From contig CALKYE010000254.1 in assembly GCA_938003765.1 (NCBI GenBank), positions 29,197 to 93,196 of the forward strand: 64,000 nucleotides of DNA, in the 5' to 3' direction. The translations under genes were made by a program, and so were the position numbers. This document shows, piece by piece, positions 18,701 through 57,667 of this stretch. This stretch comes from an uncultured Planctomycetia bacterium. Lineage in GTDB: Bacteria; Planctomycetota; UBA1135; GCA-002686595. The notes under the pieces were generated by a model, which saw nothing but the letters and a program-made list of their open reading frames with translations, did not search any database and was not told the origin of the DNA. Position 1 is the first letter of the stretch. Each line of letters starts with the position of its first letter.

Positions 18701-19027
18701 TACCTGCGCGGCAGCTCGAAGAGCCAGGTCAACATCTGGTGCTGGCCGGTGGGCTCGGGCGAGGTGTACGGCTACCGCACGGACGCGTCGATGCCGGCCG
18801 AGGTGCGCGCCGCGGTCACTCCCAAGGTCGTGGCCGACGCGCCGTTGGGCGAGTGGAACCGCTTCGTGATCACGATGAAGGGCGATCGGCTGAGCGTGGT
18901 GCTCAACGATCAGCTCGTGCTCGATCAGGCGCAGTTGCCCGGCGTCGCGCCGCGCGGCCCGATCGCGCTCCAGAAGCACGGCTCGCCGATCCAGTTCGCG
19001 AACCTGTACGTCAAGCGACTCGACTGA
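15752..19027 (+). CDS. Sialate O-acetylesterase-like (SASA/SGNH) domain fused to two DUF1080 domains
   Basis: Signal peptide. GEVWLCSGQSNMEW is the SASA catalytic-Ser motif. The C-terminal ~430 aa contain two DUF1080-like modules (YNGRDLSGWV...IEVQV...ICLESEGSPVEFRNLRIKEL; YNGVDFSGWK...IALQKHGSPIQFANLYVKRL). Confidence 0.8.
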   Translation: MHLLSTVLAASFACAALAPSAAAQIQLHGLLGDHMVLQRDADVVLSGKATRNVTVRVEPSWSSAPLNASADARGDWSVVVRTPGAGGPHTIKFSGDGERTLSDVYSGEVWLCSGQSNMEWTVSQFPNEAFGERGAADEIARANWPQVRLLDTPNRLSTYPRRDAVGEWTVCSPRTVGSWSATAYYFGRMLHRELGVPIGLVTADWGGTRVEAWMSTRSLAPFGQYAGTLDYLAVAGDPNARMKYAREHGANWWDRVDAAAPRSIPATWFTTGFDASAWASMDLPADLSGDELSSFDGFVYFRTVVDVPAEFAGKGATLELGPIDDRDDAWFDGQHVGGTREDGRWSVARKYKLPAELVKAGPRAIAVRVLDTGGKGGINGTVQQLVLRSDDAGLAPLPLAGAWRYRVGARMSELPSMGQSSIEVNSNTPSVLFNGMLAPLQPLKFRGAIWYQGESNVGEARQYERLFPALIDDWRRYFDCGAFPFYYVQIAPFEYRGFAPHAAAELRDAQRKALSTPGTGMAIAMDVGMVRDIHPGGKQQIGRRLALWALEKTYGRDVLSHTGPLFRSATPQGDKLRVEFDGAEGGLVIEGGPLRDIWIAGEDRRFFEADAQLDGQALLLSSPQVAAPVAVRYGWRNASLPNLYNASHLPASSFRSDDWELGDVIAVEDRGATSHLNGAREFRPLYNGRDLSGWVNVNCAPGTWIAKPDRIWCSGSPTGVLRTEKQYENFELELEWRHLARQGNAGLFVWSDPLTARGQPFTRSIEVQVMSGMEGQGFTSDGDVFPIHGAVMKPSNGRGGGARAFPTELRARPSGEWNHYRLRCVNGELELAVNGKVVTRGSECSPRKGYICLESEGSPVEFRNLRIKELPPASPALEARHVALVDDGFRSLYNGVDFSGWKFGPEHRGHWRANDWTIDFDGEGTDLWSQEEFGDFVLIADWRWSGPAHDADLPVILPDGSQPLGADGKPQTARVKECGDSGIYLRGSSKSQVNIWCWPVGSGEVYGYRTDASMPAEVRAAVTPKVVADAPLGEWNRFVITMKGDRLSVVLNDQLVLDQAQLPGVAPRGPIALQKHGSPIQFANLYVKRLD

Positions 19028-44914: not shown

Positions 44915-45631
44915 ATGAAGCTCTCCGTCCTCACCTTGTCGCTCGCGCTGCTGGCCGCTTGCGCCGCCGACGATGCGCCGCAAACGGTGTCCGCCGACTC
45001 GAGCGCGACCCCTTCGACGAACTCCAGCGCGCCCGCGACGGGCGGCCGCACCGTTCAGGCCCAGGCTCAGGAGGCCACCACCTTGGGTGACAAGTCCCGG
45101 CGCGCCCCCAACGACCTGACGCGCGCGCTCACGTACTTCGACGGCGAGTCGGAGCGCACCGTGTGGATCTCGAACGAACTCGTCGCCGAGATCGGACCCA
45201 CCGAAGAAGGGCGCGCGCGAGTGCTGCAGTTCGACAGCACGGCCGAGCAAGCGCTCCAACCGCAGGCCGGCGTGCGACTGTGGCGGCTGCGCGCGTTGCA
45301 GAGCGCCGACGAAGCCTCGCGCACGCTCACTCGCGATGAGTTGCGCTTCTCGCCCGTCGTGCACGAGACCGCATCGAGCGCTTCGCCGCGCGGAGCGTTG
45401 CCGGGCGGAGCAGTCGCGACCTTCCCGGCCGACTGGGACCGCGCGCGCATCGACGCGTGGCTCGCCAAGCACGGCACGAGCATCGTCGAGCCTGCGGTGC
45501 TCGAAGCGAACATGTTCCTCGTCGCGTCCGCGCCCGGGCTGGCGTCGATCGAGCTCGCCACTCGTCTCCACGCCACCGGCGAGATCGTCTCCTGCACGCC
45601 GAACTTCTGGCGCGAGGTCGTCACGCGCTGA
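44915..45631 (+). CDS. Lipoprotein with a protease-prodomain-like C-terminal segment
   Basis: ATG 44915. Lipobox LLAAC. C-terminus IDAWLAKHGTSIVEPAVLEANMFLVASAPGLASIELATRLHATGEIVSCTPNFW resembles subtilase/I9-type prodomain endings (...V.yaePN.). Tentative. Confidence 0.55.
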   Translation: MKLSVLTLSLALLAACAADDAPQTVSADSSATPSTNSSAPATGGRTVQAQAQEATTLGDKSRRAPNDLTRALTYFDGESERTVWISNELVAEIGPTEEGRARVLQFDSTAEQALQPQAGVRLWRLRALQSADEASRTLTRDELRFSPVVHETASSASPRGALPGGAVATFPADWDRARIDAWLAKHGTSIVEPAVLEANMFLVASAPGLASIELATRLHATGEIVSCTPNFWREVVTR

Positions 45632-45696
45632 GCGTCGCGCCGCCGCGTTGCGGTTGAGAAAAAAGCCGGGCGGGGGTTGCCGACCGGAGCGCCTTC

Positions 45697-45731
45697 ATCT
45701 ACCACGGTAGTTACAAGCTACCAAGGTAGTT
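45697..45731. promoter_or_regulatory. Two tandem 16-bp dyad boxes (ATCTACCACGGTAGTT, AGCTACCAAGGTAGTT; centres 19 bp apart) immediately upstream of the TPR/ExbB/ExbD operon
   Basis: Read directly in a locally AT-richer stretch. Each box is CTACC-NN-GGTAG with a conserved 3' TT. It ends 26 nt before GTG 45758. Closely related to the box at 53492..53507. Confidence 0.6.
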
Positions 45732-45757
45732 GAACGCGTCCTCCGGAGGCCCTCGCC

Positions 45758-48700
45758 GTGCTCCCGCCCCGCTTCCAAACCCCGCTTTTCTCGCTGATTC
45801 TGGCCGTTTGTGGCGCGCTGCCCGCGCCGGGCCTCGCCGCGCAGGAGTCCGCCGACGAGCGCTACTCCTTCCTCGTCGGCCTGTGCGACGAGCGCGAATG
45901 GCGCCTGGCTGAACGCGAGGCGCGCGCCTTCCTCGAGGAGTTCCCGCGCCACGCCAAGGCCGACCTCGCGCGCTACCGACTCGCCACCGCGTTGTTCGAG
46001 CTGGGCGAGCGCCAGGCCGCGCGCGATGTGTACGCGCAACTCGAGCGGCGCGCGGAGTTCGAGTTCCGCGCCGAGGTCCTGTTCCGCCTGGGCCAGTGCG
46101 AGCTGAGCCTGGGTCGTGCTGCGCAAGCCATTGCGGCCTTCGAGCGCGTGCGCGCGCTCACGTCGCACTACCTCGCGCCGGCGGCCGAGTTCTTCCTCGC
46201 CGAAGCGCGCTTCGCCGCGGGCGAGTTCGCAGCGGCGGACGAGGGCTATGCGCGCGTGCTCGGCTCGTCCGCGGCGGGCGAGTACGAACGCGAAGCGCGC
46301 TACGGTCAGTGCTGGTGCGCGTTCCGCTTGTCGCGCAACGAGCAGGCGCTCGAGCGCATCGCGCAGTACCTCCAACGCTACGCGCAGCACGACAGCGCTC
46401 TGGAGTTGCGCTACGTCGAGGGCGAGATCCACCTGGCCGCGCAGCGCCCGCGCGAAGCGCTCGCGTCGTTCACGGCGGTGCGCTCGGGTCCGTTCGCGCA
46501 GCGCGCGCTGCGAGGCCGCGCCTTCGCGAGCTCCGCTCTCGGCGATCATGCTGCGGCGGCGCGCCTGTTCGGCGAGTTGCTCGAGCAGGCGCCGCAGGGT
46601 GAGTTCGCGGCCGAGGCCGGTCTGCAGCGCGGCATCCAACTGCTCCTCGCCGGGGATGCTCGCAGCGCCGCGCAGGCGTTGGACTCGCGCGCCAACGACC
46701 CCGAGTCGTGGTACTGGCTCGCGCGGGCCCGTTCGGAGAGCGGTGATCGTTCCGGCGCGCTCGATGCGCTCGAAGCGGCGTTGGCCGCCAAGCCGAAGGG
46801 TGAGCTGCTCGAGCGGCTCAGCGTGTTGCGCGGCGACGTGCTGAGCGCGCTCGGACGCACGGACGACGCGGCCAAGGCCTACTCGGCGGCTCGCAGCGAC
46901 TACGCGTTGCACGCGGCGGCGATCACGGCCTTCAACGCAGGCAAGCTCGACGACGCTGCGCGGACGGCGCGAGCGCTGCTGGAGCAGTTCCCGCAGAGCA
47001 CGTTCGCCGCGCCGATGCGCGTCGTGTGCGGCGAGGAAGCGCTCGCTCGCAAGGACTACGGCGCGGCCGCGCGCGAGTTCGACGCAGCGGCCGGCGACGA
47101 GAGCGCGCAAGACGCGACGCGGGCGCGAGCCTCGTTGCGTGGCGCGTGGTGCGCGCTGCTCGCGGGGGACGCGGAAGGGGCGCTCGAGCGTTCGCAGCGC
47201 ACCGCACGACAGTTCGCCGACGGCGTCGAGGCGCAGGAGGCGCGCTTCGTGCTCGCGCGCGCGGCGGACAAGCTCGGCCGCAGCGAACTCGCGATCGAGG
47301 CGTGGAGCGACTACGTGCGCGCGCAGCCGCGCGGTGAGCACGCCGCCGAAGCTCTCGCGGGGCTCGCGCGCGTCGACCGCGAACGTTCGGCGCAGTGGAG
47401 CGCGCGCCTCGCGGAGCAGTTCCCCGACTCGCAGGCGGTGGTGGGGGCGTTGCTCGAGCTCGCCGAGCGCGAGGCGAGCGAAGGGCGCGTCGCGCGCGCG
47501 CTCGAGCTGTACCGCGACGTGCTCCAGCGTTGGCCTGAGCATCCGCGGGCGGGCGAGGCGCGCTACGCACTCGCATGGCGCCTCTTCGAAGCCGGCGAGT
47601 TCAACGCGGCCGCCGACGAGTTGGAGCTCCTCGCGCAGGTCGACGGACTCGACCCCGCCGTCGCGAGTTCGGCCGCAGAGCTCGCCGTGTGGGCCTCCAG
47701 TCGCGCCGGCGATCGCGACGGCGCCGTGGCCGCCTACCAGCGCTACCGTCGACTCGGCGCCGAGCCGCGCAAGCTGCTCGGTGCGGCCCGACTGGCTGGC
47801 GCGGCTCTCGCCGACGCCGGTCGACCGCAGGAGGCTCGAGCGCTGTTCGACGAGTTGCTCGGCCGAGCGCGCGGCGATCGCGCCGTGCAGGCGGAAGTGC
47901 TGCTCGAGAGCGCGTGGATCGCGCTCGACGCCAAGGACGTCGACGAAGCCGAAGCAGCGCTGCGCACGGCGCTCAAGTTCGGCCCCGCGCCCGCCGCGCG
48001 ACCGGCGCTCGCTCAAGCGCTGTTCTTCGCGGGCGAGTTGCGCTTCGACGCGGGCGAGTTCGATCAGGCGCGCGCCTTGTACGAGCTCGCGCTCCCTGGG
48101 GCCGCCGCGGACGTCGCTGCGCAAGCGCTCTACAAGCTCGGCTTCGCGCACCTTCGCACGGAACGGCTCGACGACGCGGCGCTCGCGTTTGCGCGCGTCG
48201 CGAGCGAGCACCCCGAGCACGAGCTGGCCGGCGAGACGCGCTACCTCAGCGCGAACTGCCGCTTCCGCCAGGGCCGCTTCGAGGAGTGCGCGCAACTGCT
48301 TTCGAGCTTCGTGCGCGAGTCTCCGCGCCACGCTTGCGCGCCCAAGGCTCTGCTCGAGCTGGGCGTGGCCTGCGGCGAGCTCGGGCGCTGGAGCGAGTGC
48401 CAAGCCGCGTTGAGCGAGCTCGCGCGCCGCAACGCGAAGGACATCGACGTCGCGCACGCGGACCTGTGGCGTGCTCGCGCCGCTCGCGAGCGCGGCGACG
48501 TGCGCGGAGCGCGCGCGAGCCTCGAACGAGTGCTCGCCGCCGACAAGGGACTGCACGCCGCGCGCGCGCGGATCGAGCTGGGTCGCCTCGACTCCGACGC
48601 GGGCGAACACGAGGACGCGCTAGCGCAGTTCCTCAAGGTCGCGCTGCTCTACGAGGGCGGCGACGTCGTTCCACAGGCGTTGTTCCTCGCCGCCGGCTCG

Positions 48701-48823
48701 CTCGAGGCCCTCGAGCGCTTCGACAAGGCCCGCGCGCGCTACGCCGAGGTCGTCGAGAAGCACTCGGGTTCGCCGTACGCCGCGCGCGCTCGCGAGCGAC
48801 TCGAAGCGCTCGCAGGCAAGTAG
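45758..48823 (+). CDS. Giant secreted TPR-repeat protein (CpoB/YbgF-like repeats)
   Basis: GTG 45758 with GGAGG 8 nt upstream. Signal peptide. About 1000 aa of TPR-like helical hairpins (AxxxYxLAxxxFxxGxxxxA pattern). Confidence 0.8.
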   Translation: MLPPRFQTPLFSLILAVCGALPAPGLAAQESADERYSFLVGLCDEREWRLAEREARAFLEEFPRHAKADLARYRLATALFELGERQAARDVYAQLERRAEFEFRAEVLFRLGQCELSLGRAAQAIAAFERVRALTSHYLAPAAEFFLAEARFAAGEFAAADEGYARVLGSSAAGEYEREARYGQCWCAFRLSRNEQALERIAQYLQRYAQHDSALELRYVEGEIHLAAQRPREALASFTAVRSGPFAQRALRGRAFASSALGDHAAAARLFGELLEQAPQGEFAAEAGLQRGIQLLLAGDARSAAQALDSRANDPESWYWLARARSESGDRSGALDALEAALAAKPKGELLERLSVLRGDVLSALGRTDDAAKAYSAARSDYALHAAAITAFNAGKLDDAARTARALLEQFPQSTFAAPMRVVCGEEALARKDYGAAAREFDAAAGDESAQDATRARASLRGAWCALLAGDAEGALERSQRTARQFADGVEAQEARFVLARAADKLGRSELAIEAWSDYVRAQPRGEHAAEALAGLARVDRERSAQWSARLAEQFPDSQAVVGALLELAEREASEGRVARALELYRDVLQRWPEHPRAGEARYALAWRLFEAGEFNAAADELELLAQVDGLDPAVASSAAELAVWASSRAGDRDGAVAAYQRYRRLGAEPRKLLGAARLAGAALADAGRPQEARALFDELLGRARGDRAVQAEVLLESAWIALDAKDVDEAEAALRTALKFGPAPAARPALAQALFFAGELRFDAGEFDQARALYELALPGAAADVAAQALYKLGFAHLRTERLDDAALAFARVASEHPEHELAGETRYLSANCRFRQGRFEECAQLLSSFVRESPRHACAPKALLELGVACGELGRWSECQAALSELARRNAKDIDVAHADLWRARAARERGDVRGARASLERVLAADKGLHAARARIELGRLDSDAGEHEDALAQFLKVALLYEGGDVVPQALFLAAGSLEALERFDKARARYAEVVEKHSGSPYAARARERLEALAGK

Positions 48824-48926
48824 CCATTCCATCGCAACGCGCGGCGCGCGCCTGCGCCGTGCGAAGTCCACTCACTCCTGTCCGTCTCCAGCACGAGGCC
48901 GTACTGGCCGCCTCGCCGAGGTTCGC

Positions 48927-49658
48927 ATGTTGTTCGCACCGCAAGACACGCCGCCGCGTCCGATCGCTCAACTCGACAGCGTCTTCGAAATGGTCGTCGC
49001 CGGTGGTCCGGTGATGATTCCGCTAGCGCTGTGCTCGCTCGTCGCGCTCACCTGCGCGTTCGAGCGCGCTCTGCGCCTGCGCGCGCGCTCGCTCGGGATC
49101 GCCGAGCTCGAACGCGAACTTTTGCCCGCGCTCGCCTCGGGCGGCGCGACGGCCGGGCTCGCGCTGCTCGAGCGCCACTCGACTCCCGCGGCGCGCGTGC
49201 TGCGCGCGGGTCTGAGCCGCTGGGACGCGCCGTACCTCGAGCGCGAGAAGGAGCTCGAAGAGGCGGGCCTGCGCGAGGTGCGCGGTCTGTCCGCCAACCT
49301 CAAGCCGCTGGTCTACGTCGCGATGCTCGCGCCGCTGCTGGGCTTCCTCGGCACCGTCTACGGAATGATCGTGGCCTTCTCGACGGTGGCGTTGAGCGAA
49401 GGCCTCGGCCGCCCCGAACTCCTCGCGGCCGGCATCAGCCAGGCGCTGGTGACGACGGCCGCGGGTCTGACGATCGCGGTGCCGACGCAGGTCCTCTACT
49501 ACTGGCTGAAGTCGCGTGTCGAGCGCTTCGCACGCAACGTCGAGGAGCTGTGGGAACGCTCCGCGCGCACGCTCCGCTCCGGAGTCACGCCGCCGCCCGC
49601 GACACCGAGCGCTCCTCCCGTCGCAGAGCCTCTCTCGAGCGCCGCGCAACCTGCCTAG
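48927..49658 (+). CDS. MotA/TolQ/ExbB-family proton channel protein
   Basis: Three TM helices. LGFLGTVYGMIVAF and ISQALVTTAAGLTIAVP are family hallmarks. Confidence 0.9.
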   Translation: MLFAPQDTPPRPIAQLDSVFEMVVAGGPVMIPLALCSLVALTCAFERALRLRARSLGIAELERELLPALASGGATAGLALLERHSTPAARVLRAGLSRWDAPYLEREKELEEAGLREVRGLSANLKPLVYVAMLAPLLGFLGTVYGMIVAFSTVALSEGLGRPELLAAGISQALVTTAAGLTIAVPTQVLYYWLKSRVERFARNVEELWERSARTLRSGVTPPPATPSAPPVAEPLSSAAQPA

Positions 49659-49667
49659 GAGCCTCCC

Positions 49668-50081
49668 ATGCACTTGCGCGACGAAGAGCCGCTCGACGAG
49701 CAGGCCCTCAACCTGACTTCGATGACCGACCTGGTCTTCCTGCTGCTCGTGTTCTTCCTGTGCGCGACGACGTTCCTCGATCCCGAGCGCGCGTTGCGGC
49801 TGGAGCTGCCCGCTGCGCAGAGCGCCGAACGTCGCGATGTCCCGCTCGAGGAGCTCGTGATCAACGTCTCCCGCGACGGAGTCCTCACCCTCGCCGGGCG
49901 TTCGATCGATCGCCCCGCGCTCGAGCGCGAGCTGCGGGCCGCGTTCGCGCGCGATCCGCAGACGCCCGTGACGATCCGCGGCGATCGCCTCGCGACGCAC
50001 GAGAACATCGTCTCCGTGATGGACGTCTGCGGGCAGGCGGGGCTCTCGAACCTGGCTGTCGGAACGCTCGAAGGCTCGTAG
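49668..50081 (+). CDS. ExbD/TolR-family protein
   Basis: AGGAG SD. LNLTSMTDLVFLLLVFFL TM helix with the conserved Asp, then a periplasmic domain (VTIRGDRLATHENIVSVMDVC). Confidence 0.9.
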   Translation: MHLRDEEPLDEQALNLTSMTDLVFLLLVFFLCATTFLDPERALRLELPAAQSAERRDVPLEELVINVSRDGVLTLAGRSIDRPALERELRAAFARDPQTPVTIRGDRLATHENIVSVMDVCGQAGLSNLAVGTLEGS

Positions 50082-50091
50082 GAGATCCGCC

Positions 50092-53000
50092 GTGCTCACC
50101 GCCGCCTCGCGCAAGAACGTCGTGATCGCCATGGCGCTCGCGGGCGCCGCCTTGCTCGCCTTCAACCGCTGGGTGCTGCCGGCGTTGTTCGACCTGCGGC
50201 CGATCCGCGACGGCGCCGGCGTGTACGCGCGCGACGACGCACGCCTGCGGTTGGCGGTGTGGGAGTCGCCGCGCCCGATGGCCGGCGAGCTCGACACACA
50301 GGCTCGCGAGTCGCACGCGCGCACGTCGCCCGACGGCCGCTGGATCGTCTACAGCGTCGGCGAACTCGGCGGCGACTGTGAGCTCTACCTCGCGGAGCTC
50401 GTCGGCGGCGTCCCCGGCGCTCCGCGCGCGCTCGCCGAGTTGAACAGCGCGGCGGACGAGCTCTCGCCCGCGTGGAGCGACGACGCGCTGTACTTCTGCT
50501 CCGATCGCGCGAACGGCGCGGGCGGGTTCGATCTCTACCGCGCGGCGTGGGACGGCGTTTCGTTCGGCGCCGTCGAAGCTCTGGCGGAACTCAACGGCCC
50601 CGCGAACGAGTGCGATCCCGCGCCCGCCGCCGGATTCCTGGTGTTCGCGAGCGATCGCGACGGCGCGGGCTTCGACTTGTACTCGGCGCCGACGGGCGGC
50701 CGCGCGGAGAAGCTCGAACGGCTCTCGAGCGCCGCGCACGAGCGCGATCCGTTCGTCACCCCCGACGGACGCGCGTTGTACTTCGCGAGCAACCGCGCGC
50801 GCGGCGGCGAGGACTTCGACCTCCTGCGCAGCTTCTTCGACCTCGGCGAGTGGCTCGCGCCCGAGCGCATCGCCGGACTGGATTCACGCGCCTGCGAACG
50901 CGCGCCCTCGACCTCGCACGACGGCCTCACGCTGCACTTTGCGCGCGCGGGCGACCCCTCGGCCGAGCTGCTCGTGTCGCGATCGATCGAGCTCTTCCGC
51001 GGCGCCGCGCCGGCGCGGGGATGGGCTGACCTGTGGCTGATGGCAGCGCTCCTGCTGCTGGCTTTGGTCGCCGCGCTGTCCAAGCGCTGGGAGGAGCTCG
51101 ACCTTCTCTACAAGTGCGCGCTGGCGAGCGTCATCGCGCACTTGCTCGTGCTCTTGCTGTTGCGCGAGCTGCACCCCGACGCGGAGGCCTGGGACAAAGG
51201 ACCTCCGCCGCAGCAGCGGATCCGCGTGCGGCTCGAAGCGCCGCGCGAGCGCGGCATCGTCGAACGTGCGGGCCGGCTCGACAGCGAGCGCGTGGCGCGC
51301 AACGAGGCCGAGCAGCCGCAGCGCGCAGAGTTCCAAGCGCCCGCGGATGAGCAGCTCTCGAGCGCTGCTGCGCCGCTCGCGATGGAGTCTGCGCCGATCG
51401 CATCGGCGCCGCAGCCGCAGGCGGCCGAGCTGGAACGCTCCGAGAGCGCGGACGCGGCGCGAACGCCGCCGGTCGAGTTGCCGAGCGAGGCGCGCGCGCG
51501 ACGTGCAGCGTTGGCCGCTCGCGAAGAGGCGCCGCAGCCCTCTGCATCGCGCGCAGAACGCGGTGAGGTTGCGACACCGGGGCCCTCGCTCGCGTTGGTC
51601 GCGCCTCGCGCTGAGGATGACAGCGCTCCAGCCGCATCGGCGCTCACGCGTCAGGCGCCGGAACGAACCGACGAGCGTCTGCCCGCCGCGCAATCTGGCG
51701 CTCCGCTCGAGCGCTCGATCGACGCCGGTGCGCTCGCGGCCGGCCCGCAGGTCGAGTTGCCCGCCGAATCGCCGGCGCGCAGCTCCGCGCTCGAGCCTGA
51801 CGCTCCGCTGTCCGCGCCGCGCTCGTTCGAACGCGAGCGTGCGCCCGCAGAGAGCGCGCGTGGCGCGTCCGCACCCGAGCGAGTCGAGGTCGCGCGCGCC
51901 GCTGATGCGTCGGAGACGAGCGGCCCCGCGAATCACGCGCCGTTGGAGCGCGCTGCGGCGCCGCAGCTTGCTCCCGAGCGCGCATCCGCGTTCGCCTCGG
52001 CCGCTGGCGAGCCGCTCTCGCGCGACGCAGCCGATGCGGCGGGGCCCGAGCTCGCGCTTCCTCGCGAGTCGCGCCAGCTCAGCTCGCTCGCCGCGTCGCC
52101 CGCGAACGAAGCTCCTGCGCCGCGCGCGCTCGCGCCGCAGCGCCGGGCGTCTCCCGACGACTCCGGCCCGAGTGCGCCGATCGCCGCCGCTGCGCCGACG
52201 GACGAGCCTCTCGAGAGCTCCGCGCCCGCGCTGCAGCCTCTCGAAGCCGCGCCGCGCGCAGCAGCGCTCGACACACCACCGGCGCCTCGACCGCTCGACG
52301 ACACGCCGTACCGCTCGCGCTTCGGAACCGAGAAGGAGATCGCGCTGCGCGAGCACGGCGGCACCGAGGAGACCGAGCGCGCGGTGGCGAACGGTCTGCG
52401 CTACCTCGCCAGTCGCCAGCGCCGCGACGGCTCGTGGGGCTCGCCCAACGATGCGCATGCGAAGTACCGCGACGTGCGCGTGGGCAAGAGCGGATTGGCG
52501 CTGCTCGCGTTCCTCGGGGCCGGGCACACGCCGGGTTCGAGCGGCGAGTACGCCCGAGTGAGCGACGCGGCCGTGCAGTGGCTGCTGGCTGTTCAGGATG
52601 CCGACACCGGGCACTTCGGCGACTGCGAGGCCTACGGCCACGGCATCGCGACCTACGCGCTGGCCGAGTGCTACGCGCTGACGCGCGACGCGCGACTCGG
52701 CGACGCGGTGCGGCGCGCGGTCGAGCGCATCCTCTCGCAGCAGATCACGCGCGGCGACGCGCGTTCGATCGGCGGCTGGAGCTACTTCTATCCCGATGGC
52801 GCGATCTTCGATCGCTGGCCGCGCGCTTCGATCGCAGCCTGGCAAGTGATGGCGCTCGAGTCCGCGCGACTGGGCGGCATCGAGGTTCCCGACGAAGCGT
52901 TCGAGCGCGCGCGCGAGTTCCTGCGCGGCTCGTGGGACGCCGAACTCGGCCGCTTCCGCTACAGCCACGATCCGCAGCGCCTGCGCTCGGGCTACGCGAC

Positions 53001-53412
53001 CTTGCCGGGCTCGACACCGGCGGCGCTGTTCGCGCTGTCGCTGCTCGGCGAGGATCTCGCGGCCACGCGCTGGCGCGAGGCGGTCGACTTCGTCAGCGGC
53101 TGCGCGCCGAACGGCTACCGCTGGGAAGGCGAGCAGGCCTTCGTCGAGCGCGCCGGGGGCAACTTGTACTTCTGGTACTACGGCAGCCTTGCGCTGCTGC
53201 GACGCGGCGGCGATGCGTGGGAGCGCTGGAACGTCGCGCTGAAGGAGTCGCTCCCGCCCGCGCAGGCGGCGGACGGCTCGTGGGCGCCGCTCGACGTGTA
53301 CAGCCAATACGCGGGCGACGACGAGCGCGACCGCGTGTACTCGACGGCGATGTGCGTGCTCTCGCTCGAGGTGTACTACCGCTACTTCACGCCGCTGCTC
53401 CAGGTGCGCTGA
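50092..53412 (+). CDS. Membrane protein fusing PD40/TolB-like repeats, a P/A/E-rich extended linker and a C-terminal prenyltransferase/terpene-cyclase-like alpha-alpha toroid
   Basis: GTG 50092 with a TAGGAG SD. N-terminal TM. PD40 units (SPDGRWIVYS, LYFCSDRANGAGGFDLYRA, LVFASDRDGAGFDLYSA, LYFASNRARGGEDFDLLRS). Two TM helices near aa 320-360. A ~400-aa linker. Toroid motifs (GLRYLASRQRRDGSWG, LLAVQDADTGHFG, SIGGWSYF, AADGSWAP). Confidence 0.8.
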   Translation: MLTAASRKNVVIAMALAGAALLAFNRWVLPALFDLRPIRDGAGVYARDDARLRLAVWESPRPMAGELDTQARESHARTSPDGRWIVYSVGELGGDCELYLAELVGGVPGAPRALAELNSAADELSPAWSDDALYFCSDRANGAGGFDLYRAAWDGVSFGAVEALAELNGPANECDPAPAAGFLVFASDRDGAGFDLYSAPTGGRAEKLERLSSAAHERDPFVTPDGRALYFASNRARGGEDFDLLRSFFDLGEWLAPERIAGLDSRACERAPSTSHDGLTLHFARAGDPSAELLVSRSIELFRGAAPARGWADLWLMAALLLLALVAALSKRWEELDLLYKCALASVIAHLLVLLLLRELHPDAEAWDKGPPPQQRIRVRLEAPRERGIVERAGRLDSERVARNEAEQPQRAEFQAPADEQLSSAAAPLAMESAPIASAPQPQAAELERSESADAARTPPVELPSEARARRAALAAREEAPQPSASRAERGEVATPGPSLALVAPRAEDDSAPAASALTRQAPERTDERLPAAQSGAPLERSIDAGALAAGPQVELPAESPARSSALEPDAPLSAPRSFERERAPAESARGASAPERVEVARAADASETSGPANHAPLERAAAPQLAPERASAFASAAGEPLSRDAADAAGPELALPRESRQLSSLAASPANEAPAPRALAPQRRASPDDSGPSAPIAAAAPTDEPLESSAPALQPLEAAPRAAALDTPPAPRPLDDTPYRSRFGTEKEIALREHGGTEETERAVANGLRYLASRQRRDGSWGSPNDAHAKYRDVRVGKSGLALLAFLGAGHTPGSSGEYARVSDAAVQWLLAVQDADTGHFGDCEAYGHGIATYALAECYALTRDARLGDAVRRAVERILSQQITRGDARSIGGWSYFYPDGAIFDRWPRASIAAWQVMALESARLGGIEVPDEAFERAREFLRGSWDAELGRFRYSHDPQRLRSGYATLPGSTPAALFALSLLGEDLAATRWREAVDFVSGCAPNGYRWEGEQAFVERAGGNLYFWYYGSLALLRRGGDAWERWNVALKESLPPAQAADGSWAPLDVYSQYAGDDERDRVYSTAMCVLSLEVYYRYFTPLLQVR

Positions 53413-53491
53413 TGGGACGGCGGAGCTCGCGCGTACACAAGGCCAACACGCCGACGCGGATTGCGTACGGGGCCGCCCCTGTTCAGCCGAT

Positions 53492-53507
53492 AACTACCGT
53501 AGTAGTT
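53492..53507. promoter_or_regulatory. 16-bp dyad box AACTACCGTAGTAGTT, 59 nt upstream of the blaI-like gene (candidate autoregulatory operator)
   Basis: Arms AACTAC/GTAGTT are perfect inverted repeats. 11 of 14 core positions are identical to the boxes at 45697..45731. Sits in the only AT-richer patch of the intergenic region. Confidence 0.6.
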
Positions 53508-53566
53508 TTGAGGCGCAGCGGGTCGCGAGGCGCGATCCGTCTCAGCGCGAAGGAAGCGAACGAGCG

Positions 53567-53974
53567 ATGAAGGACAAGGACCGGATCCACCATCTTGGCG
53601 AGCTGCAGCACGCGATCATGCGCGTGCTCTGGGCCGAGGGCGAAGCGAGCGTGGCGCGCGTGCAGGAGGCGTTGCCCGAAGAGCACCGCCGCGCGCTCAC
53701 CACGATCGCGACCATGCTGACCAAGATGGAGCGCAAGGGCGTGGTCACGCACCGCTCCGAGGGGCGCTTCTTCATCTACGCGCCCGCGGTGAAGGAGACC
53801 GACGTGCGCCGCTCGATGGTCGAGGACCTGACCGAGCGTCTGTTCGACGGCGACGTCGCGGCGCTGGTGTCGCACCTGCTCACCGAGCAGGAGATCGAGC
53901 GCGACGAGCTCGCGCGCCTGCAGAAGCTCATCGAAACGCGTCGCAAGGGGGACAAGGGCCATGGGCGCAAGTGA
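53567..53974 (+). CDS. BlaI/MecI/CopY-family winged-helix transcriptional repressor
   Basis: LGELQHAIMRVLW...TIATMLTKMERKGVV...GRFFIYAP is a typical penicillinase-repressor fold pattern. Overlaps the downstream M56 gene by 14 nt. Confidence 0.9.
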   Translation: MKDKDRIHHLGELQHAIMRVLWAEGEASVARVQEALPEEHRRALTTIATMLTKMERKGVVTHRSEGRFFIYAPAVKETDVRRSMVEDLTERLFDGDVAALVSHLLTEQEIERDELARLQKLIETRRKGDKGHGRK

Positions 53975-55898
53975 GTTCGCGCTCAGCGCGCTCGCCTTCG
54001 TACTGACCTACGCCATCCACAGCACGCTGCTGCTCGGCGTGGCGTGTCTGCTCGCCCCGCGAATCGTGCGCTCGCTGGCGTTGCGCGAGAAGCTGTGGAA
54101 GACGGCCATGTTCGGCGGTCTGTTGACCTCGCTCGTGCAAGTCGGCGCGAGCATGGAGACGCCGCTGTTCCACTGGACGTTGGAGTCGCACTCCGAGGCG
54201 AGTTCGCTCGCCGCCGACAACCAGCTCGAGCTCGAACGCGCGCCCCAGCTGCAGCTCGAACTGGCGCTCGCTCCCGCGACGACCGACGCTTCCGACGGCG
54301 CGAGCGAGCCCGCGGCCGCGGACGGAGCTCGAACGGAACTCTGCGTCGAGGACGGCGCGTCGACGAACGTCTCCTCGCCCGCTCAGGTCCGGGCGAAGGT
54401 CGCGAGTGCTGCACCCGCGCCGCGCGTTTCGCCGATCGTGTCCGCCGCGCCGACGGAGCGCGACCTGGCCGCGAACCCCGTTCGCGAGAGCGACTCGGCA
54501 CACGAGAACGAGCTCGCAGGCGCCGCCGCGCGCGAAGCCGACGCGCCGAGCGCTTCGATCGAGCGCGAAGACTCTGAGAGCTGGTCGGCCGCGCTGGTGC
54601 GCGGATGGCGAACGTGGACGGCGCGAGGCCTCGCGCTGTGGGCCGTGTTCGCCTGCGCCGTGCTGGTCGTGTTCGCCTCGATGTGCCTGCGCCTCGTGCG
54701 TTGCATGCGCGGTCGCACGGAGCTCGAGAGCGGTGAGCTGCGCGACGTGCTCGACCGACTGGTCCGGCAGGCGTACCCCGCGGGGCGGCGCGTGCGCTTG
54801 TACGTCGCGCCCGAGTTGCGCGCTCCGGTGAGTCTGGGCTGGCTGCGACCCGCGATCTGCGTTCCGCCGCGCGCGTTGGTCGAGCTGAGCGCCGATGAGC
54901 AGGAGAGCATGCTCGCGCACGAGCTCGCGCACCTGGTGCGCCGCGATCCGCTGTGGCTCTCGGCCGCGTGGCTCGTCGAACGCGTGTTCTTCTTCCAGCC
55001 GCTGCACCGCGTCGCGCGCGCCGAGCTGCACGACCTCGCCGAGCTGGCGTGCGACGAGTGGGCCGCGCGCCGCACCGGCGATCGGCTCGCGCTCGCGAGT
55101 TGCCTCGCGCGCATCGCCGAGTGGATCATCGCCGCGCCGCGCGCCTTGCCTGCGACCTCGATGGCCGAGCACCACGGCCGCTGTCGATTGACGCAGCGCA
55201 TCGAACGGCTCCTCGACGACGAAGCCGGGCTCGCGCGCGACGAGCGCACGCGCCGTTGGTTGGCGCCGGCGATGGCGACCGGCCTGGGAGCGCTGGTCTT
55301 CGTGGCGCCGGGTGTGTCGGCGCCCGCGACGACGACGGATGCGAGCGTGTTCGATCACGCGCAGGTCGACTCGCCTGAGTTCGACGCGAGCGCGGAAGAG
55401 CGCGCGCCGGCGCCTTTGCGGACGACGACGGACGCTTCGTGGGTTCCGGCCGCGCCGAGCAACGCAGGTCGGCCGGCGGCTGCGTCGCCCTCGGAGCTCG
55501 ACTCCGCCGCGCCGCGCGAGTTCGCCGCGCAGCTCGATCTCGCCGATTCGGCTCTCGACGCGCCGACTCCGCCTGCCGCGCCGACGCCGACTCTGGCGAC
55601 GCTGCCGGCGCCCACGGTCGACGAGCGCGCGTCACTGAACGCGCAGCTCGATCAGTTGAACGCGAGCCTGTCCGCGCTGCGCGCCGAGTTGGGCCCGCTG
55701 CGCGACGAGGTCGGCGATCTCGGCCGCGACTCGCAGGTCGCGCGCGCCCTGTCGGCCATCGCGCGACGTATCGACAACCTGGAGCGCCGGTCTCAGTCGC
55801 TCCAGCAAGTGATCCAAGTGCTCGAAACGCTCGAGTCGAAGCCAGCCCATCCTTCGAGCACTTCCGTTGGTTTCCAAGGTTCCAGGAGTCTTCCGTGA
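53961..55898 (+). CDS. BlaR1-like M56 family membrane metalloprotease/signal transducer lacking a PBP-type sensor domain
   Basis: N-terminal TM helices. HELAHLVRRDPLW (HExxH). The C-terminal ~230 aa are low-complexity plus coiled coil (LNAQLDQLNASLSALRAELGPLRDEV). No SxxK motif seen. Confidence 0.85.
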   Translation: MGASEFALSALAFVLTYAIHSTLLLGVACLLAPRIVRSLALREKLWKTAMFGGLLTSLVQVGASMETPLFHWTLESHSEASSLAADNQLELERAPQLQLELALAPATTDASDGASEPAAADGARTELCVEDGASTNVSSPAQVRAKVASAAPAPRVSPIVSAAPTERDLAANPVRESDSAHENELAGAAAREADAPSASIEREDSESWSAALVRGWRTWTARGLALWAVFACAVLVVFASMCLRLVRCMRGRTELESGELRDVLDRLVRQAYPAGRRVRLYVAPELRAPVSLGWLRPAICVPPRALVELSADEQESMLAHELAHLVRRDPLWLSAAWLVERVFFFQPLHRVARAELHDLAELACDEWAARRTGDRLALASCLARIAEWIIAAPRALPATSMAEHHGRCRLTQRIERLLDDEAGLARDERTRRWLAPAMATGLGALVFVAPGVSAPATTTDASVFDHAQVDSPEFDASAEERAPAPLRTTTDASWVPAAPSNAGRPAAASPSELDSAAPREFAAQLDLADSALDAPTPPAAPTPTLATLPAPTVDERASLNAQLDQLNASLSALRAELGPLRDEVGDLGRDSQVARALSAIARRIDNLERRSQSLQQVIQVLETLESKPAHPSSTSVGFQGSRSLP

Positions 55899-57667
55899 TG
55901 AAACTGGTCTTGTCTCTCTCCGCGCTCGGACTGATCGGCAGCGGCGCCGCTGCTGTCTCGACGCAGAGTTCTTGTGCGAGCCCCAAGCCGTGCGCCACGA
56001 CGCTCGCGGCGGACTCGAGCTGCTCGCAGGCCACGCCGCTCGCGATCAGCGTCGCCGCCGTTCCTGCGCAAGGCGACAAGGTCGCTGCGCGCGCCGCTGA
56101 ACTCGAGGCCCTCGCTGGCGAGCAGGGTCTCGCCGACTCCGCGCAGGACGAGCCCGCGGGGATCTCGACCAAGGCGCCCCAGCAGCGTCAACCGCGCGTG
56201 TTCCGCTACGAAGGCGGCACGCTCACGCCCTCCGCTCCGAATAGCGTCGCGACGCCGCGGGCCCCGGCCGCACCGCGCGCTCCGGCGGCGCCTCACGCTC
56301 CGGCGGCGCCTCACGCGGCCGCGCAACCGTGTGCGCCGTGCCCTGCCGCGCCGGCGTGTCCGCCGTGCCCGCCGTGCGAACCTTCGAAGGCGACGCCCGC
56401 TGCGCCGCACTCGAAGAGCAAGTCGAACGGTTCGGTGGCGAGCACGCAGCAGTGGCGCGCTCAGGTCGAGCGACAGATCGCGACTGCGCGCGACGCCCAA
56501 GAGCACGCCCGCCAACGCATGCGCGAAGCGCTGGATCAGCAGCGCGAGGCGCAGCAGCGCGCGCGCGAAGAGGTCGAGCGTGCGCGCGAGCGCAGTCAGA
56601 CGCAGACCAAGCGTGCGCTCGAGCAAGCTGAGCGCGCCGCCATCATCGTGCGCGACAAGGCCGAGCGCGGGCACGCTGCGGAGTCCAAGCGCCGCGCCTC
56701 TGGCGCCAGCGAACGCGAACTCGAACTCGAGCGCCGTGTGCAGGAGCTGGAGGCGCGTCTGATGGAGATGGAGCGCTCTCGCGGCGGGCAGGCCGGGCCT
56801 GGTGCGCACACACAGTCCGGGCCGCACGGCGTGAGCGGTGGTGTGCGCAGCCGCGTGCACGCGCCCGCCGCCCCGTCCGCCCCGCACGGCGCCAGCGGCG
56901 GTGCGCGCATCCGCGCGCGCGTCGTGGGGCCGAACGGCAGCGGCGGAGTGTTCCTCGAGACCTCGCCCGAGTCCGACGACCGCGAGTGCAATCCCAGTCG
57001 CGTGCGCGTGCTGCGCATGCCGGCCGGGAAGGGCACGGTCGTCGTGCCCGGTGATCTCGGCGGGCTGGTCGATCTCGACGGGCTCGACATCGCGGTGATC
57101 GCGCCCGACGGCAGCCGCGTCGACTGGGGCGAGAGCATCGCGAAGTGGGCCGAGGAGTTTGCTCACGAGCAGGCGCAGTGGGCGGAAGAGTTCGCGCGCG
57201 CGCACGCCGGCGAGTGGAGCGAGCTCGCCTTGGAGCGCTTGGACGACGTCGAGGACGCCTGGGACTCGGCCTGGGAGCGCTACGAGGATCAGCTCGAGGA
57301 GGCTCAGGAACTCGAGGAAGAACTGCGCGAGGAAGCCGAGGAGGCAGCCGAGGAAGCTGCGGAAGAGGCGGCCGAGGCCGAAGAGCTCCAACGCGAAGCC
57401 GCTGAGCGGACGCGCGAGTCGCGGCTCGCGCCGCACGTGGTCCGTGGCGAGCAGAGCCAGGCGCTCGCGCCGCTGGCCGCGCTGAGCCTGCTCGGGAAGC
57501 AGGATCCGCTGGGGCTCTCGCGCCTCGCCAACTACCCGGGCGAGTCGAGCACGGAGCAGCTCCGCAGCGCCGTGAACGAGATGCAGAGCGAGGTCGATGG
57601 CCTGCGCGCGGCGCTGCGCGAGTTGCGCGAGCAGCTCGAGCAACGCAAGCGCACCGCGACCTTCTGA
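55898..57667 (+). CDS. Secreted coiled-coil protein with a Cys/Pro-rich cluster (third gene of the BlaI/BlaR1-like operon)
   Basis: ATG 55898 overlaps the upstream TGA by 1 nt; AGGAG is 10 nt upstream. Signal peptide MKLVLSLSALGLIGSGAAA. QPCAPCPAAPACPPCPPCEPS. Long charged helices. Acidic EEAAEEAAEEAAEAEE tract. Confidence 0.75.
   Translation: MKLVLSLSALGLIGSGAAAVSTQSSCASPKPCATTLAADSSCSQATPLAISVAAVPAQGDKVAARAAELEALAGEQGLADSAQDEPAGISTKAPQQRQPRVFRYEGGTLTPSAPNSVATPRAPAAPRAPAAPHAPAAPHAAAQPCAPCPAAPACPPCPPCEPSKATPAAPHSKSKSNGSVASTQQWRAQVERQIATARDAQEHARQRMREALDQQREAQQRAREEVERARERSQTQTKRALEQAERAAIIVRDKAERGHAAESKRRASGASERELELERRVQELEARLMEMERSRGGQAGPGAHTQSGPHGVSGGVRSRVHAPAAPSAPHGASGGARIRARVVGPNGSGGVFLETSPESDDRECNPSRVRVLRMPAGKGTVVVPGDLGGLVDLDGLDIAVIAPDGSRVDWGESIAKWAEEFAHEQAQWAEEFARAHAGEWSELALERLDDVEDAWDSAWERYEDQLEEAQELEEELREEAEEAAEEAAEEAAEAEELQREAAERTRESRLAPHVVRGEQSQALAPLAALSLLGKQDPLGLSRLANYPGESSTEQLRSAVNEMQSEVDGLRAALRELREQLEQRKRTATF

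Follow-up and report, generated by a model that had tools for sequence, protein, structure and literature searches.

Three copies of a short dyad in the 64,000-nucleotide stretch of DNA analyzed here (the window) are very likely operators of the BlaI-family repressor encoded at 53567-53974. These sites would unite two blocks of genes, blaI-blaR1-X and TPR-exbB-exbD-PD40, in one repressed regulon that is relieved by BlaR1-like cleavage of the repressor. We infer BlaI binding, repression and proteolytic inactivation, and regard the regulon prediction overall as well supported. According to the original prediction, the BlaI-like repressor controls its own operon as well as the upstream Tol/Ton-like cluster. 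Conservation of the boxes in orthologous loci, their confinement to promoters, their retention where the two blocks are unlinked or fused, and their TAC-N4-GTA geometry lend support to that view.

Three related dyads precede the TPR operon and blaI

The tandem pair ahead of the TPR operon consists of predicted operator box 1 (ATCTACCACGGTAGTT, 45697-45712), the distal copy, and predicted operator box 2 (AGCTACCAAGGTAGTT, 45716-45731), which are in register with starts 19 bp apart. Predicted operator box 3 (AACTACCGTAGTAGTT, 53492-53507) is a putative autoregulatory site before blaI; none of the three is assigned a strand. The respective core dyads are TCTACC-AC-GGTAGT (45698-45711), GCTACC-AA-GGTAGT (45717-45730) and ACTACC-GT-AGTAGT (53493-53506), and the dyad common to all three is ACTAC(C)-NN-(G)GTAGT. 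Box 3 is present in single copy and has one imperfect arm, an A replacing G on the right; the same variant occurs in L018 and L019.

The GTG at 45758, the earliest start available to the 1021-aa TPR ORF, lies 26 nt past the end of box 2, and a GGAGG occupies 45745-45749. Box 3 stops 59 nt short of the blaI ATG (53567), inside the 154-nt gap between the PD40 gene and blaI. Checked against the sequence, the original prediction was exact in all box coordinates and sequences, and correct both in describing a two-copy dyad 19 bp apart and 26 nt from the operon start and in placing a third, related dyad 59 nt before the blaI-like gene. It had also located the pair in an unusually AT-rich patch of the window; GC content at the box sites does dip (0.645 vs ~0.72), but modestly, and other intergenic gaps in the window typically share this dip. 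The SD sequence of the TPR gene falls within a perfect palindrome of its own, CCTCCGGAGG (45740-45749).

The motif CTACN4GTAG matched the 64-kb window 3 times compared to 0.06 expected, all 3 matches being these boxes, and none of 100 shuffles reached this count. The looser pattern TACN4GTA likewise gave 3 matches (0.31 expected), while ACTACCNNGGTAGT, allowing up to 2 mismatches, gave 4 (0.27 expected). The only extra weak match in the window, at 18818, was rejected as a further regulon member, as it is without the TAC/GTA core and lies within a long ORF.

The cluster encodes a BlaI/BlaR1-like pair, an exported protein and a Tol-like operon

The repressor gene (53567-53974, plus strand) encodes a 135-aa BlaI/MecI-family winged-helix protein matching PF03965 Penicillinase_R (6e-32, residues 10-123), and phmmer aligned residues 7-123 with MecI 1sd6 (E 5e-11). 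Its recognition helix, TT(I/V)ATML.KME, is invariant wherever the box is kept, at 49-100% overall identity. MecI and BlaI repressors are cleaved at Asn101-Phe102 (N-F); the aligned residues in this protein are His103-Leu104, which are invariant in its clade. C-terminal CxC metal-binding motifs are absent from the protein, which has no cysteine, and the CopY/TcrY model TIGR02698 scored 77 bits, under its cutoff of 122.

Overlapping blaI by 14 nt is a gene for a 645-aa BlaR1-like M56 zinc protease (53961-55898, plus strand; PF05569 Peptidase_M56, 1.5e-21) with a HELAH motif. Neither PF00905 nor any other sensor domain was found in this protein even at E<=5; its C-terminal ~190 aa consist of low-complexity sequence and coiled coil, and the blaR1_generic model gave 39 bits against a cutoff of 400. 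The start of gene X (55898-57667, plus strand) overlaps the blaR1 stop as TGATG, through which X is translationally coupled to blaR1, and X follows blaR1 in all lineages examined. The product of X is a 589-aa exported, Pro/Ala-rich protein of coiled-coil and low-complexity sequence with no family match. At lenient thresholds, no TonB_C or other sensor domain was detected in either the BlaR1-like protein or X.

The predicted target operon lies wholly on the plus strand. Its first gene (45758-48823) encodes a 1021-aa CpoB/YbgF-like TPR protein that matched Pfam TPR families and exceeded the cutoff of TIGR02795 tol_pal_ybgF (216.7 bits vs 90.1). An ExbB/TolQ-like proton-channel subunit (48927-49658; PF01618 MotA_ExbB, 3e-24) and an ExbD/TolR-like subunit (49668-50081; PF02472, 1.7e-24) follow; their best NCBIfam models were TolQ and TolR, respectively, both under cutoff, as was the match to the TolB model among the cluster genes. 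The last gene (50092-53412) encodes an 1106-aa membrane protein in which an N-terminal PD40 (TolB-like) propeller is followed by a hydrophobic segment, a low-complexity linker and a C-terminal squalene-cyclase-like domain. No TolA, TonB or Pal was recognisable among the cluster genes. Pfam matches upheld the earlier calls of a TPR/ExbB/ExbD operon and a BlaI-like gene. The linker of the 1106-aa protein is long, and its C-terminal domain is highly conserved and ends YYRYFTPL; a homologue of this domain alone is encoded near blaI on the minus strand of one related locus (L009 4295-5467).

The boxes are conserved before blaI and before the TPR operon in related genomes

Examination of orthologous loci, which the original prediction had proposed as a check, revealed boxes at both positions. 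Tracing BlaI homologues with 66-96% identity to the contigs that encode them gave loci L001-L017, each with exactly one exact CTACN4GTAG, always 36-104 bp before blaI. At least one box was present 28-104 bp before blaI in every locus possessing both blaI and upstream DNA, with BlaI 49-98% identical among such relatives and 58-98% identical over L001-L023, L027-29, L032, L034, L038, L039, L041, L045 and L097. When up to 2 mismatches are allowed, many lineages have 2 abutting blaI boxes, ACTACCNNGGTCGT and then ACTACCNNGGTAGT, in a 14-bp register. From lineage to lineage, the blaI boxes keep the same arms, differ freely at the central dinucleotide and have flanks that cannot be aligned. Two types of neighboring gene were observed near blaI in lineages where it is unlinked from the TPR operon: an ECF sigma factor gene and a 148-aa gene lie directly upstream of blaI in L011 (7074-8053) and L012 (8703-9682), and a 1120-1150-aa CarboxypepD_reg-repeat protein is encoded on the opposite strand in L009 (6167-9622), L011 (2419-5841) and L013 (6217-9576).

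Searching with a profile of the 1106-aa protein yielded 80 species-level loci (L018-L097); all of those with informative names belong to Planctomycetota, the phylum to which the names of homologues also assign the window. Seven window proteins were mapped onto all loci, which were then scanned for boxes. The tandem pair, always in the 19-bp register, lies ahead of the TPR gene both in the window and in all close relatives (L001, L002, L004, L005, L018-L022 and L063), and the register was counted 15 times at TPR promoters. Single boxes lie 47-238 bp before the estimated TPR start in 12 species (L024, L030, L040, L043, L052, L056, L073, L075, L077, L080, L084 and L087), of which Engelhardtia mirabilis Pla133, Rohdeia mirabilis Pla163 and Saltatorellus ferox Poly30 are in culture. 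In all, 18 species-level genomes have a box before the TPR operon. In one clade (L004 2242, L005 2247, L020 4549 and L021 5627) a third, degenerate box, CCGACCC(C/T)GGTAGT, is found 19 bp past the tandem pair; this weak site extends the array to 3 sites in register.

The order of the 2 gene blocks is permuted between lineages. The blaI-blaR1-X block is downstream of TPR-exbB-exbD-PD40 in the clade of the window and upstream of it in L023-type genomes. Of the latter type are at least 11 species other than those with a box before the TPR operon, in which blaI-blaR1-X immediately precedes that operon and is encoded on the same strand (L023, L027-29, L032, L034, L038, L039, L041, L045 and L097). 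In L023 (2810-8891), overlaps of 4 nt and a gap of 25 nt connect the genes, boxes lie before blaI alone, and blaI-blaR1-X-TPR-exbB-exbD-PD40 in genomes of this type looks like a single transcription unit. One genome represents the opposite situation: L063 (MAG SJ533, JADYYP01, contig 45) keeps the tandem pair without a blaI within 10 kb, the blaI of this MAG being located on contig 43 (L007) and encoding a protein 87% identical to the BlaI of the window. Thus, the association of the box with the TPR operon survives unlinking. Conversely, 23 of 57 evaluable TPR-operon loci possess neither a box nor an adjacent blaI, 2 of them (L057 and L071) having fragments of blaI or blaR1 at the locus edge, indicating that the predicted BlaI control is restricted to certain lineages.

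The boxes are confined to promoters and their arms are invariant

A dispersed repeat unrelated to promoters, named in the original prediction as a contrary outcome, is not what the loci contained. Instead, 90 of 99 near-consensus boxes (up to 2 mismatches) fell within 35.7 kb of blaI/TPR promoter windows, which make up 2.2% of 1.64 Mb. Box density was 2.5 per kb in these promoter windows compared to 0.0056 per kb elsewhere, a ~450-fold difference, and the boxes found off-promoter numbered only 9 in 1.6 Mb of loci, all of them weak. These figures bear on the alternative that the boxes have no function, being chance similarities or a neutral repeat dispersed in the genome. In favor of that reading are the shortness of the boxes and the presence of only 3 copies in the window; against it are the shuffling results, conservation of both position and sequence in at least 18 species, and the promoter enrichment. 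Chance or neutral repetition is effectively refuted, and we assign it a negligible probability.

In an alignment of 8 orthologous TPR promoters, 26 of the 48 invariant columns correspond to the arms of the 2 boxes, against a mean column identity of 57%. CTACC and GGTAGTT are invariant in all 8, while the central NN varies. As judged by sequence comparison, these results show that the boxes are under purifying selection across many species and 3 gene arrangements.

Alternatively, the tandem palindromes might act as a nucleic-acid structure instead of a protein site, either a hairpin in the mRNA leader or a cruciform in the DNA, with an effect on transcription or translation. The 71-nt leader does fold at -27.4 kcal/mol (z = -4.2), with box 1 pairing with box 2, but such a fold is an automatic by-product of 2 identical palindromes and leaves the SD sequence unsequestered. 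Single boxes, as found before blaI and at distant TPR promoters, yield only a 5-6-bp stem with a 2-nt loop. Moreover, the arms are invariant, without compensatory changes or covariation, whereas variation is found at the unpaired central NN. A Rfam scan of 45500-53700 returned no family at the gathering threshold, and its 2 sub-threshold matches lie away from all 3 boxes. We consider a structural role for the boxes very unlikely. Separately, a long-range inverted repeat that brackets the boxes (45658-45674 / 45763-45792, 12-13 nt) was set aside as probably nonfunctional, because it is confined to the 3 closest genomes (the window, L018 and L019).

With the boxes read as protein-binding sites, their position relative to the promoter is of interest. 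Invariant blocks in the 8-promoter alignment that lie ahead of the tandem boxes fit TTGnGA-N17/18-TTGC (TTGnGAAAAA and TTGC, 17-18 nt apart) and constitute a candidate promoter element, represented in the window by TTGAGAAAAAA at 45654-45664 and TTGCCG at 45677-45682 (45654-45682, plus strand). A sigma-70 consensus scan of 45400-54000 gave no sites, and inspection by eye showed that the conserved TTGC block does not fit the -24/-12 spacing of a sigma-54 promoter. We propose that operator and promoter may overlap in the window, based on the 26-nt distance to the start codon and on analogy with a more distant lineage that has a canonical promoter, described below.

The palindrome is shared with other regulators, but BlaI is its only constant neighbor

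An exact scan of metagenome contigs for TACTACCNNGGTAGTA found it in at least 120 places. Among the matches listed, most were low-GC chance matches, 18 abutted a gene for a BlaI homologue (33-71% identity) and one was 86 nt before a TPR homologue. One lineage, with a BlaI of ~50% identity, has its box within a canonical promoter, TTGACA-N5-TACTACCNNGGTAGTAT, whose -10 element TAGTAT falls in the right arm of the box; directly next to this box, in a 14-bp register, is a second one, ATTACCNNGGTAAT (boxes at L110 1396, L124 4580, L136 1041, L157 2589, L158 1231, L190 1347 and L193 6725). For a predicted operator, this placement in the -10 region is the position expected of a repressor.

In unrelated metagenome contigs of high GC content, the 16-bp palindrome TACTACC-NN-GGTAGTA is also found ahead of genes for GntR-family regulators and of RHH-antitoxin/toxin pairs (L141 5827, L170 10826 and L207 3667; L115, L122, L145, L164, L165 and L166). 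Several repressor families therefore appear to use this dyad, and the palindrome alone is not diagnostic of BlaI. The boxes of the window could be operators of another protein whose gene lies elsewhere, either a paralogue of this BlaI or a dyad-binding regulator unrelated to it, in which case the blaI box would mediate cross-regulation rather than autoregulation. That only 64 kb of the genome is visible leaves room for such a protein, and M56/BlaI pairs are often multi-copy in Planctomycetota; within the 64-kb window no further BlaI paralogue was found. However, the BlaI orthologue group is the only regulator gene constantly beside the box, in all species and in 3 gene orders, and for this reason we disfavor control by a different regulator. 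The BlaI recognition helix is likewise invariant wherever the box is kept, the geometry of the box is that of the BlaI family itself, and neither the window nor the loci have a GntR or RHH gene close to the cluster. Control by a different regulator is thus an unlikely reading, and the BlaI encoded at 53567-53974 is the favored candidate for the protein that reads the boxes.

A predicted proteolytic switch for a Tol-like operon

Under the proposed mechanism, each 14-bp dyad, ACTACC-NN-GGTAGT, would bind one winged-helix BlaI homodimer. Two dimers, adjacent to each other in the 19-bp register, would occupy the promoter/leader of the TPR-exbB(tolQ)-exbD(tolR)-PD40 operon, and one would sit before blaI-blaR1-X, such that both units would be repressed at rest. 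An extracytoplasmic or envelope signal would activate the co-encoded BlaR1-like M56 metalloprotease; cleavage of BlaI by the protease would then lead to loss of the dimers and derepression of both units. We further suggest, as a tentative and rather doubtful extension, that a BlaR1-type protease sensor, in which a beta-lactam-binding domain was lost or never existed, monitors the envelope together with its co-transcribed partner, exported X, and that BlaI cleavage switches on a Tol-like PMF machine. If true, this would amount to a proteolytic envelope-stress circuit linking an M56 sensor to a Ton/Tol motor, and it might explain why TonB-related domains are frequent on M56 proteins in other phyla.

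Our literature search found almost no transcription-factor operators or regulons for Planctomycetota and no description of a BlaI operator or regulon from this phylum. Likewise, the searched literature contained nothing relevant on BlaI/BlaR1 in connection with Planctomycetes or with ExbB/ExbD/Tol-Pal, and no report of Tol-Pal or Ton being controlled by a BlaI-type repressor. That literature likewise contained no report of the predicted Tol-like, PMF-driven envelope output for either the BlaI/BlaR1 family or Planctomycetota. One M56 system without a beta-lactam domain gains a concrete predicted output, namely a Tol-like ExbB/ExbD operon together with its 14-bp operator. The prediction is directly testable, since the cultured, fully sequenced Engelhardtia, Rohdeia and Saltatorellus carry a box before the TPR operon, and the operator could become a genetic tool in Planctomycetota.

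Comparison with known systems

The closest parallels are BlaI-BlaR1 and MecI-MecR1 of Staphylococcus aureus and Bacillus licheniformis. As in those systems, a Penicillinase_R repressor whose full length aligns with MecI is encoded next to an M56 HEXXH membrane protease, the operators are TAC-N4-GTA dyads with 2 dyads at a regulated promoter, and autoregulation is predicted. S. aureus BlaR1 cleaves its repressor directly (PMC9834060), and by analogy we would expect direct cleavage in the present system as well. The differences are nevertheless substantial. The half-site is TACC/GGTA rather than TACA/TGTA, the fourth base being C instead of A; blaI precedes blaR1; the BlaR1-like protein is without a penicillin-binding sensor domain; the N-F cleavage dipeptide is replaced by H-L; and the predicted target is a Tol-like TPR/ExbB/ExbD/PD40 operon instead of a beta-lactamase or PBP2a.

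The cop, bla and mec operators recognized by CopY, BlaI and MecI share the form TACA-NN-TGTA, TACANNTGTA, and often occur twice per promoter (PMC7253601). For CopY/CopR, the cop box TACANNTGTA has the extended form RNYKACANNTGTMRNY, specificity reaches outward from the core, and there are distal and proximal operators (PMC7253601). The original prediction drew on this comparison, and it stands with respect to operator geometry: the repressors belong to the same protein family, their sites share the 10-bp core geometry and 2-nt centre, and specificity extends past the core, the conserved dyad in the present case being 14 bp. It does not hold beyond geometry, since a protein without cysteine has no CxC copper/zinc site; in addition, the repressor described here is paired with a protease, in contrast to the copper-export genes that accompany CopY/CopR.

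Approximately 94% of M56 'BlaR-like' sensors are without a beta-lactam-binding domain, and their outputs are mostly uncharacterised (PMC13492132). An M56 protein with no recognisable C-terminal domain is the commonest architecture, and is also that of CenR (PMC13492132). The BlaR1-like protein thus resembles the M56 protein of C. difficile CenIR in having a C-terminal region without a recognisable domain (PMC13492132). M. tuberculosis BlaI represses an ATP-synthase-linked gene and cell-division genes (PMC12565901), and this Rv1846c regulon, like the one predicted here, reaches beyond antibiotic resistance (PMC12565901). Both CenIR and M. tuberculosis BlaI differ from the present system in phylum and in targets.

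On the output side, the operon resembles Tol-Pal/Ton in its TolQ/ExbB-like and TolR/ExbD-like subunits, its CpoB/YbgF-type TPR protein, which scored above the NCBIfam cutoff, and its PD40 (TolB-like) propeller. It differs from them in that the cluster has no recognisable TolA/TonB or Pal and in the fusion of PD40 with both a membrane segment and a squalene-cyclase-like domain. PVC bacteria are reported to have TPR-tolQ-tolR clusters with unusual force transducers (PMC12204202). On the sensor side, the tests for a beta-lactam sensor and for a CopY metal site failed, which places the system with M56 systems that are without a transpeptidase domain. Its sequence, the pairing of its genes and the geometry of its operators mark it as a predicted proteolytic switch of the BlaI/BlaR1 type.
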